Origin: a virus | Lineage: Duplodnaviria > Heunggongvirae > Uroviricota > Caudoviricetes | Length of the DNA: 4,487 bases | Reading direction: 5' to 3' (one strand) | Virus record (IMG/VR): IMGVR_UViG_2671180338_000011 | Part shown: piece by piece, positions 1 through 4,487 of the stretch | Numbering within the stretch: position 1 is the stretch's first letter | Layout of the letters: each line of letters begins with the position of its first letter | Notes under the pieces: generated by a model | The model's input: only the letters and a program-made list of their open reading frames with translations | Databases searched by the model: none | What the model was told of the DNA's origin: nothing | Translations under genes and position numbers: made by a program

Positions 1-38
1 AAAACACTATCAATAAGTTGGAGTCATTACCCCAATTT

Positions 39-1408: not shown

Positions 1409-1792
1409 TTAATTAGAGTTATTAACAACGATATCCATCTCTAACCGGATATCTAATGCCATTAACATCCCTTCAATTATGCCCTCAGCCTTCTGTAACC
1501 TTTTCCCGATATAACCATCAGAGCAGCAATGCTTACCTGCCAGTGACATGAATGTCATACCGACTACATAATAATCTACTAATAAATCGTGCAAATCGCT
1601 GTTGTTCTTTTTCAGACGGGCCATGCACCCGCAAATAATCATCGCGTCATCGTCACAACATTGCGGGCGAGATTTTACTTTTGAAGTAATTAATCCCTTA
1701 AAACCGGCGGCAATGGACGACCAGGTCACATCTTCATGATTATTAGCCGCCCACGCTCCCCAACGCTCAAGAACCATCTGAATATCACGCAT
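1409..1792 (-). CDS. quuD: Late-gene antitermination protein Q (DLP12 QuuD-like, 127 aa)
   Basis: ATG at 1792-1790 with GGAG 7 nt upstream on the minus strand. Cys-rich motifs ([20 protein letters not shown]) and size match the short Q proteins of DLP12-type prophages. The ORF-track start at 1807 is a TTG extension. Position directly downstream of rusA/ylcG is the canonical lambdoid layout. Confidence 0.8.
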
Positions 1793-1877
1793 CAACTTAC
1801 TCCACAAAAATCAGACCAGAACGCCAATTACAAGCAAAAATCAACAAAACAGTATTAGTTGATTGTTATCTCTGACT

Positions 1878-2018
1878 TCATACTCCTGCTCCTGTCAGGG
1901 TTTTGGCGTAATTCTTCAGTATTCGGTAATCGGTCAAAACAGAACCGGGGAAACGATATAAGCGCAGATGCCCCCAGCGGTGGCGAAGAAGTTCTGCCAT
2001 ATAAAACTCAAACATCAT
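1878..2018 (-). CDS. ylcG: Small nin-region protein YlcG-like (46 aa), not in the supplied ORF track
   Basis: Hand translation of the minus strand gives [46 protein letters not shown], ending in TGA at 1880-1878. Its ATG overlaps the rusA stop (ATGA). Size and position match DLP12 ylcG between rusA and Q. Confidence 0.6.
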
Positions 2019-2377
2019 TCATTCCCCATTTCGGTGATGGTCAGTTCCAGCCTCCCACCTTTGGTAACAGGCATCTTCACAACGCGGTAATCAACGACCT
2101 GAGCATCATCCAGCCAGAAACCTGCTTTGGTGAGTGCGTCAAAAGCGGCTTTTTGCAGATTATCCAGGTCACGGCGACGGCGATCCGGCATGTGGCACTC
2201 AATACGGATTTTCACTGGCATAGCCAGGCCGATATCCAGCATTGCGTTTTTAATGATTCGGGTGACGTTATCGCGGTATGCCTGCCCTTCTGCGCTGATG
2301 TGTGTGCGCCCGCGATTATGGCGGTAATAGCGGTTATTGCTCGGAGGCCAGGGTAATGTGATGCTGTAGGTATTCAC
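2015..2377 (-). CDS. rusA: Crossover junction endodeoxyribonuclease RusA (Holliday junction resolvase), 120 aa
   Basis: Translation [24 protein letters not shown]...[11 protein letters not shown] closely matches E. coli RusA as I recall it. The start codon read from the sequence is GTG (2377-2375), overlapping the ybcO TGA stop (GTGA). Confidence 0.9.
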
Positions 2378-2664
2378 GCCTTAATAACCCCCTCTTTCAG
2401 CCAGATAACCTGCGTTCTCGCCATACCTTCCAGCGCGCATTCTTTTGCATACTCAGCATCGACAAAATATGTGCGGCGGTCGATTTCGTCGTGACAGGCA
2501 GAACATGCAATGGTGGCAATCAGGTCTGGCGGTTTGATACCGGTACCGCACAATCCAGCCAGCCGGATATGTGCCAGTACTGACGTTTCAGGATTGCCAT
2601 TACATACGCCAGGGATTCTTACCTGGCATTCCCGACCACGCGCTGCTTTTCTCAAATCAGCCAT
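2374..2664 (-). CDS. ybcO: YbcO-like Cys-rich nin-region protein (DUF1364, putative nuclease), 96 aa
   Basis: ATG at 2664-2662 preceded by AGGAGG on the minus strand, giving [23 protein letters not shown]... The ORF-track start at 2703 is a TTG extension. Several Cys/His residues consistent with a zinc-binding fold. Family from memory. Confidence 0.85.
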
Positions 2665-2827
2665 GATTCCTCCTTGCTGCCAGTCGCAACCATTTTTTAT
2701 CAACCAGGCTAGCGGTATATCCGAGCAGTGTTGGTATTTCGGATGGCTTCAGCTCAGGCTTACGCTTACGACGATTTGATACTCTGTAGATGTGCCCGTT
2801 CATGACACGAATAAGCGGTGTAGCCAT
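2657..2827 (-). CDS. ninE: NinE-family small protein (56 aa), not in the supplied ORF track
   Basis: Hand translation of the minus strand from the ATG at 2827-2825 gives [56 protein letters not shown], stop TGA at 2659-2657. The basic C-terminal region resembles lambda NinE. Start overlaps the ybcN stop (TAATG); 3' end overlaps the ybcO start by 8 nt. Confidence 0.7.
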   Translation of the reverse strand: MATPLIRVMNGHIYRVSNRRKRKPELKPSEIPTLLGYTASLVDKKWLRLAARRNHG

Positions 2828-3282
2828 TACGCCTCCTGCTTATCGCGCAGCTGCTGGTATTCACAGCTCTGCGGAATTGTCAGGTGGCAGCCGATATTCA
2901 TCGCCCAGGCTTCGACTTTGCACAGGAAGATGTACATCTCGCCGGTTTCCAGCTCTGACGTATGGCGGAGGGATTGGACGGTGGTGACCTCGCCGGACAC
3001 GACATCTACACGGTCTTTGCTTTCGTAGCCGAGATAGGTGTGCTTCATCGCGTCTTTGACCCACTCAGGCGTAGCGAAGGTCTTGCCGCGGGCGATGAGA
3101 TATTCGCTGATCTCCGTGTACCACATGTGGCTGAGCGCGTTCTGCGACAGGCTGCGCTTCTCGCGCCACGGCTTAACCTGCAGGCGTAAGCATTGCCCGG
3201 CATCCAGCAATGGCTGAATCTGCTGGCCGATGGCCGCGAAGTTACCGCGATGGAGTTTGATGCCGTCTACTGGCAGAGTCAT
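2827..3282 (-). CDS. ybcN: NinB/Orf-family recombination protein (DLP12 YbcN-like), 151 aa
   Basis: ATG at 3282-3280 with GGGAGG 4 nt upstream on the minus strand. The RSLSQNALSHMWYTEIS segment resembles the RSLDQN...LW motif of lambda NinB. First gene of the nin cluster, as in DLP12. Confidence 0.85.
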   Translation of the reverse strand: MTLPVDGIKLHRGNFAAIGQQIQPLLDAGQCLRLQVKPWREKRSLSQNALSHMWYTEISEYLIARGKTFATPEWVKDAMKHTYLGYESKDRVDVVSGEVTTVQSLRHTSELETGEMYIFLCKVEAWAMNIGCHLTIPQSCEYQQLRDKQEA

Positions 3283-3308
3283 ACGGCCTCCCTAACGGAA
3301 ACCGCAGA

Positions 3309-3338
3309 ATGCAGAAAATCGCAGGTGCATTTCTGCAT
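3309..3338. promoter_or_regulatory. Inverted repeat with 9-bp arms ATGCAGAAA/TTTCTGCAT and 12-bp spacer, 27-56 nt upstream of the ybcN start; candidate operator or leader RNA structure
   Basis: Perfect arm complementarity read directly. Lies in the divergent intergenic region between ybcN and the AT-rich cassette. Confidence 0.3.
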
Positions 3339-3369
3339 CTGTGACAAGGTGATGAGTTCAGATTGTGGT

Positions 3370-3393
3370 CGCATTTAAGTCCCCTTAAATGCG
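3370..3393. other. Strong stem-loop: 10-bp perfect stem CGCATTTAAG/CTTAAATGCG with 4-nt loop; function unassigned
   Basis: Read directly. No U-tract on either side, so not a canonical intrinsic terminator. Sits just before the GC-to-AT composition shift. Confidence 0.35.
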
Positions 3394-3502
3394 CAGAAGT
3401 CACCGGAGTTGTTCAGGCTCCGATGAGAGGATTATGGCGGATTGATTACGATAAATCAAAACTATCTTGAAGCCAAAACAGTGATCTTCGCTTTAAAAAC
3501 CT

Positions 3503-3510
3503 TGTATACT
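3503..3510 (+). promoter_or_regulatory. Candidate extended -10 element (TGTATACT) for the AT-rich cassette
   Basis: TATACT hexamer with TG immediately upstream, about 37 nt before the ATG at 3547. No convincing -35 hexamer at 17-bp spacing; AT-rich upstream sequence could act as an UP element. Inferred only. Confidence 0.3.
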
Positions 3511-3546
3511 TTCACCTAATCACAGCCAGAACTATGGATCTAACCA

Positions 3547-3924
3547 ATGACCAACAAAGAAAACAAAGATAAATATATTAACAAGTTCAAGAAAGAGCTT
3601 TCAAAATATATACAACCAACTGCTGGAGTGGACATTCAATTATTTAACTCTAAGGATGGTGGTGGTGTAATTAAAGCCACTTTGAATAGAAGTGGAAAAA
3701 GAAAATCATCTATTGCTGGTAATTTTACTAAATTAGGTGAGGCAATTACCTCGAGTGGGCAGAGGGTTTTTGGTGGTGATCTATCAAATGTGAATTTTTA
3801 CGGAACAAATACGATTTTTGATGGAGATACAATATTTTTAATTAAATCACCTGATTCAGAGGAGTGGTCATCACAAAAAGCTTCCAAAGACGTAGAGGGC
3901 ATCGTATTTGGAGGGAAAAAATGA
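3547..3924 (+). CDS. Hypothetical protein, 125 aa, Lys/Gly-rich, no signal peptide or TM segment, family not recognised; first gene of AT-rich cassette
   Basis: ORF with in-frame TAA two codons upstream of the ATG. Weak RBS (GGAT). About 30% GC by eye. Stop TGA overlaps the downstream ATG (ATGA). No conserved motif I can name. Confidence 0.6.
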   Translation: MTNKENKDKYINKFKKELSKYIQPTAGVDIQLFNSKDGGGVIKATLNRSGKRKSSIAGNFTKLGEAITSSGQRVFGGDLSNVNFYGTNTIFDGDTIFLIKSPDSEEWSSQKASKDVEGIVFGGKK

Positions 3925-4349
3925 TTAACATTACTACTAAGGATGGCACTCAAGTCAGTGGTGAAGTAAGAGATCTAGTAATTCTTCTTGAAACTGATGG
4001 AAAAACGGTGTCTGATTATTTGCAGCCAATCCCTCCCAAAAAAGATACACACTGGAGCATGATTTTCATTCCGGTAGCAATTTATATACTACTTAATCTT
4101 GTATACATTATTGCTCACCCATTATTTCCTGAAAAATATCTAAAAACATCAACATCTATATTTCTATTCATTTCCTTCATATTAAGTGCAATAGTAGCAT
4201 ATTTTGTTTTCCATAAGCATAAATCTGCCACTCTATCCATATGCAGCTTAGTGTTCTTAGTGTTAATTGTAGGTGCTAACGTAGGGTTTATCAGTTACAG
4301 CGACCTAACACAAAAAGCGACGCAAAAATTAGATAGTTTGTCTAAATAA
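3921..4349 (+). CDS. Hypothetical small membrane protein, 142 aa: about 44-aa N-terminal soluble region followed by three predicted transmembrane helices; family not recognised
   Basis: ATG at 3921 preceded by GGAGGG (3910-3915). Hydrophobic stretches WSMIFIPVAIYILLNLVYIIAHPLF, IFLFISFILSAIVAYFVF and LSICSLVFLVLIVGANVGFI separated by short Lys/His-containing loops. The ORF-track start at 3864 is a GTG extension overlapping the upstream gene in another frame. Confidence 0.65.
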   Translation: MINITTKDGTQVSGEVRDLVILLETDGKTVSDYLQPIPPKKDTHWSMIFIPVAIYILLNLVYIIAHPLFPEKYLKTSTSIFLFISFILSAIVAYFVFHKHKSATLSICSLVFLVLIVGANVGFISYSDLTQKATQKLDSLSK

Positions 4350-4356
4350 TTATGTT

Positions 4357-4377
4357 GCCATGCGAAGTATGCATGGC
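4357..4377 (+). other. Stem-loop (7-bp stem GCCATGC/GCATGGC, 7-nt loop) 8 nt after the cassette stop; possible transcript-end structure
   Basis: Read directly; no U-tract immediately downstream, so terminator function is uncertain. Confidence 0.3.
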
Positions 4378-4487
4378 TGCATGTCTGCCTTCCATTTAAA
4401 ATGGGCTAAGACCTATAACCCTAAATATTATTCTTTATTATCTTCTTTACCACTTCGGTGATGCTGCCAACTTACTGATTTAGTGTA

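Follow-up and report, generated by a model that had tools for sequence, protein, structure and literature searches.

The window analysed here, a 4,487-bp stretch deposited as IMG/VR virus record IMGVR_UViG_2671180338_000011, is a piece of a DLP12-like lambdoid prophage of E. coli/Shigella. It raises the question of what the strongly AT-rich block to the right of the nin gene ybcN is, where it ends and what its two genes, here called geneA and geneB, may do. An earlier note, made from the letters of the window, took a compositional boundary at about 3420-3440 for the left edge of a horizontally acquired island that probably runs on past the right edge and may include further genes of its system. 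We find that the block is, with high confidence, a compact horizontally acquired cassette of two genes, placed antisense in the slot between the replication gene P and ybcN, closed at the 3' end of P and followed by an IS1 element. This anatomy, taken together with a role in phage exclusion or abortive infection, is the explanation we favour overall, with a probability of about 0.55.

The AT-rich block is a short cassette with defined ends

The compositional step is real. Sliding-window GC content falls from 0.58-0.59 (2900-3300) to 0.33-0.37 (3500-4400), and the maximum-likelihood GC change-point in 1409-4457 lies at 3440 with a log-likelihood ratio of 35.2, far above that of shuffled sequences (mean 2.5, maximum 9.2, n=300). 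Mean GC is 0.501 for 1409-3420 and 0.346 for 3421-4457. Codon usage shifts as well: GC at third codon positions (GC3) is 0.26 in geneA and 0.28 in geneB compared with 0.76 in ybcN and 0.68 in P, and classic rare codons make up about 9% of the cassette genes compared with 0-4% in most neighbours. Two details of the earlier note needed adjustment. The DNA to the left, described there as GC-balanced, is so on average but is in fact a mosaic, with the porin gene, quuD and their spacer at 0.35-0.44 (spacer 0.38, quuD 0.43), and the step appears sharp partly because ybcN is unusually GC-rich (0.577). The cassette genes, put at about 30% GC by eye, are indeed AT-rich, at slightly higher values of 0.341 (geneA) and 0.336 (geneB).

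Alignment to related prophages fixes the ends of the block (Table 1). On the left, homology to four prophages with other cargo (L004, L005, L006 and L011; L numbers denote comparison loci) ends at 3460-3463; on the right, the window diverges from intact relatives at 4457/4458. In strain A7, the block measures 1,009 bp at GC 0.339, with 0.537 and 0.572 in the 1-kb flanks; it has its right-hand change-point at window-equivalent 4449 and ends at window-equivalent 4449-4457. Intact relatives have the stop codon of P 78 bp after geneB, the following 1 kb being at 0.572 GC, and in 46 relatives GC is back to 0.55-0.66 within 100 bp. The right junction can also be read from the P protein, encoded on the minus strand (annotated at L001 7129-7842): P of phi80 ends (...SNGMV*) exactly where similarity to the P allele of cassette-bearing prophages starts, and in the latter P gains nine AT-rich C-terminal codons (RSGKEDNKE) relative to phi80 P. 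The cassette is always accompanied by one P 3' allele, and the 3' half of P (L001 7159-7513) occurs at ≥99% identity only in the 46 cassette-bearing genomes.

Flanking direct repeats, suggested in the earlier note as marks of the endpoints, were not found: no credible pair lies at the cassette ends, so there is no insertion scar. The combination of flanking repeats with an own recombinase or transposase, by which an integrase-type island or a transposon would be recognised, is absent, and the cassette holds geneA and geneB only. The block was, with high confidence, exchanged by recombination at the borders of the slot, as opposed to transposition or site-specific integration.

Table 1. Positions of the cassette, its genes and signals, and the neighbouring features of the window
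Feature	Position	Strand	Remarks
IS1 terminus	1..31	+	Exact 31-nt match to one IS1A end, L002 6393-6423; opposite end to that at 4457-4487, same orientation
Porin gene, OmpC/NmpC-type		+	True start probably 138; from ORF list, Pfam/PHROG and RefSeq annotation of near-identical loci
quuD (antiterminator Q), ylcG, rusA, ybcO, ninE, ybcN (NinB-like)		-	From ORF list, Pfam/PHROG and RefSeq annotation of near-identical loci
ybcN	2827..3282	-	NinB-like recombination or base-flipping protein; Pfam NinB, phrog_72; YbcN in annotated relatives
ybcN upstream leader, conserved backbone	3283..3461	-	Last DNA common to prophages with other cargo; fold z = -2.2
AT-rich accessory cassette (moron)	3462..4457	+	996 bp, GC 0.345; change-points 3440 and window-equivalent 4449; homology breakpoints
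Candidate -10 hexamer TATACT	3505..3510	+	Cassette operon; weak -35 region
geneA	3547..3924	+	Right of ybcN; 125 aa, soluble, no signal peptide or transmembrane segment; phrog_18061 (function unknown)
geneB	3921..4349	+	Right of ybcN; 142-aa inner-membrane protein, N-terminal segment of ~40 aa and 3 transmembrane helices; phrog_16940 (function unknown)
Hairpin	4352..4382	+	Starts 3 nt past geneB stop; fold of 4347-4445 -23.2 kcal/mol, z = -2.7
Hairpin and T-run, terminator-like	4403..4421	-	Just downstream of P stop; terminator scan, fold z = -2.7
P tail: last 9 codons and stop (...RSGKEDNKE*)	4428..4457	-	AT-rich, cassette-encoded; remainder of P missing, IS1 following
Second IS1 terminus (GGTGATGCTGCCAACTTACTG...)	4457..4487	+	Exact match to IS1A end, L002 7130-7160

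IS1 elements bound the window

Both ends of the window are exact 31-nt IS1 termini (as in the annotated 768-bp IS1A) in the correct relative orientation for this element. Read from these termini, the window is a 4.4-kb prophage fragment between two direct IS1 copies, resembling a composite transposon, and most likely represents a short-read contig broken in the IS1 repeats, probably of Shigella sonnei or of a strain comparably rich in IS1. It is literally so that GC does not recover before the window ends, as the earlier note remarked; this is due to the IS1 that follows at 4457 and not to further island, the last 31 nt (4457-4487) being IS1 terminus.

None of the 46 complete E. coli genomes that match through the right end of the cassette has the IS1 at 4457, which arrived later than the cassette itself. 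The exact IS1 junction was not found in complete E. coli RefSeq genomes or in GTDB species representatives. A protein look-up led to CP044151.1 (L030), one long record with an identical right junction. In this record a full 768-bp IS1 stands at the position of the window start with an 8-9 bp target duplication (CCAATTTT); the right-hand IS1 is split by an IS21-family element (L030 8537-11438) and is followed by non-prophage DNA, including a LacY-family transporter gene, with no target duplication. Together with an inverted 9-mer described below, the arrangement suggests that an IS1-mediated inversion or rearrangement parted the cassette from the remaining prophage in L030.

Several further observations concern IS1 at this locus. 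The 9-mer after the right-hand IS1 of L030 (CGCTTGCAG) recurs as its reverse complement beside an inverted IS1 about 4 kb away (15008-15775). The right-hand IS1 of the window lies within about 3 nt of the recombination junction between the cassette and the native P stop codon (4455-4458), which has a chance of <1% if placement is random within the 1-kb cassette; IS1 prefers AT-rich targets, and this or coincidence are candidate reasons for the position. In E. coli CV839-06 (L002 6393-7160), an independent IS1 is inserted in geneA just after window-equivalent 3691 with a clean 9-bp duplication (TGAATAGAA). It is the second IS1 in the same 1-kb AT-rich block; geneB is intact and the strain is viable.

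The cassette is exchangeable cargo in a slot beside P

A megablast search with 3300-4487 found the cassette in 46 of 5,426 complete E. coli genomes, uninterrupted in most. The ybcN-ybcO backbone is present in about 3,800 genomes, and both flanks lie close together in 156. All annotated examples have the gene order ybcN - geneA - geneB - replication protein P - O-like replication protein. Proteins identical to those of geneA and geneB are encoded on >1,000 E. coli/Shigella contigs, many of which bear the label Shigella sonnei and measure about 4 kb. Even a search at blastn sensitivity did not detect the cassette DNA in 50,697 deposited phage genomes, and the cassette is known only from prophages.

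Elsewhere the same slot is filled by unrelated genes: ren and two small open reading frames (ORFs) in L004, three ORFs in L005, ybcM-ybcL in the DLP12 prophage of K-12 (L006), a 239-aa ORF in phi80 and, in lambda, ren between P and ninB; L012 also carries other cargo. Among the relatives examined, P and ybcN are never direct neighbours; some cargo always separates them, so that the slot has undergone cargo replacement, not simple insertion. Other Enterobacteriaceae prophages have versions of the pair with 66-76% identity, again antisense and at the replication/nin junction; these prophages differ in their replication module (DnaB-type, DnaC/IstB-like or O/P) and in their nin genes (DUF1367, NinB). 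Between these diverged enterobacterial versions, the alignable DNA is limited to the two coding sequences (window 3546-4364). As to other cargo, the replication/nin region of L011 holds a colicin-like pore-former with an immunity-like gene, a DndB homologue and a geneA/geneB pair (2297-3980, 6482-7603).

According to published work, lambdoid prophages carry accessory and defence genes directly behind their replication genes (PMC13043305), and prophages are the main reservoirs of defence systems in E. coli (PMC9519451). In the literature we found nothing specific by protein accession, nor a catalogued P-ybcN hotspot.

Two other accounts of the block bear on these data. It could be ancestral prophage backbone whose composition reflects local constraints, and parts of the same prophage are indeed fairly AT-rich, as in the porin-quuD spacer and quuD. 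This is scarcely credible, given that the block is found in just 46 of the roughly 3,800 genomes with the ybcN-ybcO backbone and 46 of the 156 with close flanks, that unrelated cargo takes its place with clean breakpoints, and that prophages with unrelated backbones, and other phyla, have the pair too. Its horizontal acquisition, as proposed in the earlier note, is supported by the same facts. The boundary near 3440 could, alternatively, be the left edge of a larger island that runs past 4487 with more genes of the same system, in line with a GC content that never regains the backbone level inside the window. We regard this as very improbable: the 46 relatives regain 0.55-0.66 GC within 100 bp, the stop codon of P comes 78 bp past geneB, diverged cassettes also hold just two genes, and the window end is IS1, followed by unrelated DNA in CP044151.1. 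What had been called an island is a closed unit of about 1 kb, in which two genes are followed by P, and the window edge is a contig break caused by IS1.

geneA and geneB form a conserved, coupled pair

The start of geneB overlaps the stop of geneA (ATGA) behind a strong Shine-Dalgarno sequence, GGAGGG, at 3910-3915, and geneB is, with high confidence, translationally coupled to geneA. GeneA is taken to be a small cytoplasmic protein of the alpha/beta type. Ratios of nonsynonymous to synonymous substitution (dN/dS) are 0.08 for geneA and 0.08-0.09 for geneB, with a saturated dS of >1.9. These low ratios indicate that both are real genes under purifying constraint. In the geneB protein, basic residues lie before the first transmembrane (TM) helix and between the second and the third; by the positive-inside rule this placement predicts a cytoplasmic N-terminus.

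Searches of Pfam, NCBIfam 2026 and PADLOC v2 assigned neither protein to a family, the matches being to PHROGs of unknown function and sub-threshold hits due to TM bias, and a sequence-profile search of the PDB gave nothing significant. The AlphaFold2 models predate the discovery of the deep family and were built on shallow alignments of enterobacterial sequences. The geneA model has the topology alpha-beta-beta-alpha-beta-beta-alpha at low confidence (predicted local distance difference test, pLDDT, 58.5); that of geneB consists of three long helices, likewise at low confidence (67.7), and hydropathy concurs.

The cassette also carries candidate expression signals. A -10-like hexamer (TATACT, TAGTAT or TATAAT) is conserved in position, 35-40 nt before the ATG, in three diverged cassette versions. 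The hairpin after geneB may be a terminator, an RNA stabiliser or an insulator; one with the same CCATGC/GCATGG core stands at the same position in the Klebsiella/Enterobacter-type cassette (15-bp, after geneB in L007). On the opposite strand, the terminator-like hairpin behind P could reduce the transcription that runs on from the early-right operon into the antisense cassette. The orientation of geneA and geneB, antisense to the early-right (lytic) operon of the phage, together with the -10-like hexamer, the Shine-Dalgarno sequence of geneB and the spacer hairpins, fits independent expression in the lysogen.

Homologous pairs occur in several phyla

An exhaustive profile search yielded 111 distant geneA relatives of about 120-135 aa, counted as clusters at 50% identity and hence at least 111 in number. 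The family shares the signature F-GTN...IxLIK-D...W...A..DV. For the back-translation search, the wide alignment had no stretch that was conserved enough, and a tighter sub-alignment succeeded. Every divergent relative with a readable locus (metagenomic Gammaproteobacteria, phage contigs, a Nitrospira metagenome-assembled genome (MAG), Neptuniibacter, Nitrosomonas and Synechococcus) has an overlapping or abutting gene for a small membrane protein after geneA, and the pair spans four phyla. Partners with three TM helices are found in L013, L016, L020, L022-L025, L039 and L042; the partner in L043 has two, and that in L041 is cut by the contig end. The partners share the motif EGTPEEV..F..NGL...Y..KP, followed by the three TM helices, and are homologous to geneB (hhalign 95.9%, E 5e-9). 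Diverged cassettes likewise consist of exactly two genes.

The clearest view of the mobile unit comes from the Nitrospira MAG (L022 4966-5822) and Neptuniibacter (L023 4966-5822), whose pairs are 88% identical in nucleotide sequence over 857 bp and show no similarity outside. As similarity is confined to these 857 bp, the transferable unit is the pair alone. The match implies a recent transfer between phyla, or possibly contamination of the MAG. Compared with the host DNA, the pair has a lower GC content in Neptuniibacter, Nitrosomonas and Synechococcus (0.48 vs 0.67 in the last), and a slightly lower one in the Nitrospira MAG (0.40 vs 0.41).

At some of these loci the recognisable neighbours are conflict genes. 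In L020 the pair adjoins BrnA, a Gp49/HTH pair and a homologue of PD-lambda-3_B (E 6e-83); abortive infection is the mode of action given for PD-lambda-3 in PMC13190303. Neighbours in L022 are a PDC-M14A candidate, an Mrr-like nuclease, a Lon/AAA protease and an MNT nucleotidyltransferase. In addition, the 447-aa metagenomic protein P0104 (L037 246-1589) has a geneA-like domain (1-120) fused to an HNH endonuclease (PF01844, E 1e-12), with about 200 C-terminal aa to which no domain is assigned, and is intact in independent assemblies. The HNH fusion suggests interchangeable effectors, a pattern of swapping typical of defence systems.

Scans of 78 geneA relatives found no match to Pfam or to PDB sequences, and PADLOC (E <= 0.01) returned only four single-member matches at chance level (E 0.002-0.009) to unrelated models. 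PADLOC gave no match either for the window proteins (E <= 1) or for distant A and five distant B proteins (E <= 0.1).

The pair compared with known systems

AT-rich accessory cassettes in lambdoid prophages are textbook matter, and in this sense the compositional boundary is ordinary and the P-side slot a recognised cargo position. The moron concept, reportedly due to Juhala and Hendrix in 2000, covers accessory cassettes of promoter, gene and terminator such as lambda bor and lom and HK97 gp15. The present cassette resembles morons in being small and self-contained, in lying against the lytic operon, in being present in some relatives only (46/5,426) at a variable site, in having a distinct composition (GC 0.339-0.345 compared with flanks of 0.537 and 0.572), and in its candidate promoter and trailing hairpin. 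Unlike morons, it has two coupled genes, not one, and its promoter and terminator are predictions.

Lambda ren and the ybcL-ybcM genes of DLP12 occupy the same position, downstream of the replication genes and upstream of ninB/ybcN, and HepS of Gifsy-1 likewise lies just after replication genes. The geneA-geneB cassette runs antisense to the operon, unlike Ren and the other cargos examined, which follow its direction. Homology to Ren was rejected (hhalign probability 0.1%).

RexA/RexB of lambda may be the closest functional analogue and serves as a working analogy for the mechanism. It is a pair expressed from the prophage independently of the lytic operons, as is assumed for geneA and geneB, and likewise combines a soluble protein with a small polytopic inner-membrane protein of about 140 aa. 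The cassette is not of the Rex family: hhalign gave 1.4% for geneB against RexB and 0.04% for geneA against RexA, and homology was rejected. RexA has 279 aa compared with 125 aa for geneA, RexB is described as a protein with four TM helices compared with three and a cytoplasmic N-terminal segment in geneB, and rexAB lies in the immunity region, geneA-geneB in the P-ybcN slot. A second variable cargo slot, matching the position of rexAB in lambda, was seen beside the cI-like repressor in L010, L026, L032, L034 and L035; depending on the strain it holds a SIR2_2 protein, an ImmA/M78 peptidase with DUF4411, an ASCH-domain pair or a BstA-like KilA-N protein.

With the systems catalogued in PADLOC-DB v2 (2023), including PD-lambda, PD-T4, PD-T7 and the PDC candidates, the pair shares the small operon and the location in prophages or islands, and it sometimes adjoins catalogued systems (PD-lambda-3_B, PDC-M14A, DndB). 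It differs from them in that no model matches the window proteins, the 78 geneA relatives or the five distant geneB partners. What sets the cargo apart is that the libraries tested hold no annotation for this well-conserved module of two genes, of which homologous pairs occur in Nitrospirota, Cyanobacteria and Proteobacteria.

Proposed function and alternatives

Held tentatively, the most likely single function would be that of a membrane-acting phage-exclusion or abortive-infection module. In this proposal, geneA and geneB would be expressed from their own promoter in the lysogen and would shield the cell and the prophage from other phages. GeneA, the putative sensor or regulator, would sense a cue of infection and act through the cytoplasmic N-terminus of GeneB; GeneB, the putative membrane effector, would in turn disturb the inner membrane and either depolarise it (abortive infection) or keep DNA from entering (exclusion). 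A wider and somewhat less secure proposal is that the pair may be the enterobacterial branch of an undescribed cross-phyla two-gene anti-phage system, made of a small cytoplasmic sensor with swappable effectors. The effector would usually be a membrane protein with three TM helices, replaced by a fused HNH nuclease in at least one lineage, and the system would move into chromosomal islands and the cargo slots of prophages as one piece of about 0.85 kb.

Several points weigh against a defence role. For both proteins, PADLOC v2, Pfam, NCBIfam 2026 and the PDB gave no matching entry; the structure models are of low confidence (pLDDT 58 and 68) and fold searches with them were uninformative. The role proposed here is argued from genomic context. 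A consensus promoter scan calls no promoter upstream of geneA; the candidate promoter is weak and expression in the lysogen is assumed, and H-NS could silence DNA as AT-rich as this. The signal from defence neighbours is patchy, the pair lying among seemingly ordinary genes (judged by eye, mostly unscanned) in Neptuniibacter, Nitrosomonas and Synechococcus. The HNH fusion, finally, is a single cluster on 1.6-kb contigs.

The same gene pair could instead be a toxin-antitoxin or addiction module, in which GeneB is a small membrane toxin held in check by the coupled upstream GeneA and the prophage or island is stabilised. The gene order, with a putative neutraliser before a membrane protein and an ATGA overlap, resembles that of antitoxin-toxin operons, the pair travels as a self-contained unit of about 0.86 kb, and it adjoins toxin-antitoxin genes in L020, L013 and L022. 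We consider such a module unlikely, since there is no similarity to toxin-antitoxin families in Pfam or NCBIfam and classic small membrane toxins are smaller and simpler than GeneB, with its 142 aa, three TM helices and conserved cytoplasmic segment; moreover, strain CV839-06 is viable with geneA broken by IS1 and geneB whole, and a lethal toxin left unchecked is hard to reconcile with this if geneB is expressed there. Toxin-antitoxin and abortive-infection roles are not mutually exclusive. Another reading takes the pair for cargo outside defence, either a membrane function of lysogenic conversion (stress, transport, envelope) to the advantage of the host or a helper of the lytic cycle, in keeping with the housekeeping-like surroundings without recognisable defence context in L023-L025, with the lack of a nuclease, NTPase or other catalytic signature in the usual pair, and with one source that labels geneB a VIT1/CCC1-type Fe2+/Mn2+ transporter. 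That label is unsupported by Pfam or NCBIfam, a lytic helper is at odds with a cassette antisense to the lytic operon, and the patchy distribution, the mobility across phyla and the HNH-fused relative fit conflict systems better; we therefore think this reading quite improbable. The contexts and the HNH-fused relative make the pair worth testing, at low cost, as a candidate new module of defence or addiction that acts at the membrane, and E. coli 536 is a convenient natural host.

Other features of the window

The left flank of the cargo slot is formed by ybcN, a member of the early-right (nin) operon whose GC richness (0.577, GC3 0.76) was noted above. Within its leader, a terminator scan found two overlapping terminator-like hairpins on the minus strand (3302-3337), which may represent a tR2-like terminator where the nin region begins. 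Some RefSeq records annotate an ORF of 32-33 aa in this leader.

At the other end of the window, 284 bp directly upstream of the porin gene are gone (junction at 82/83), which are present in strain A7 and in CP044151.1 (L030 3879-4162). The deletion probably removes the promoter region of the porin gene, and it creates a spurious upstream ATG at 60 that lengthens the listed porin ORF.

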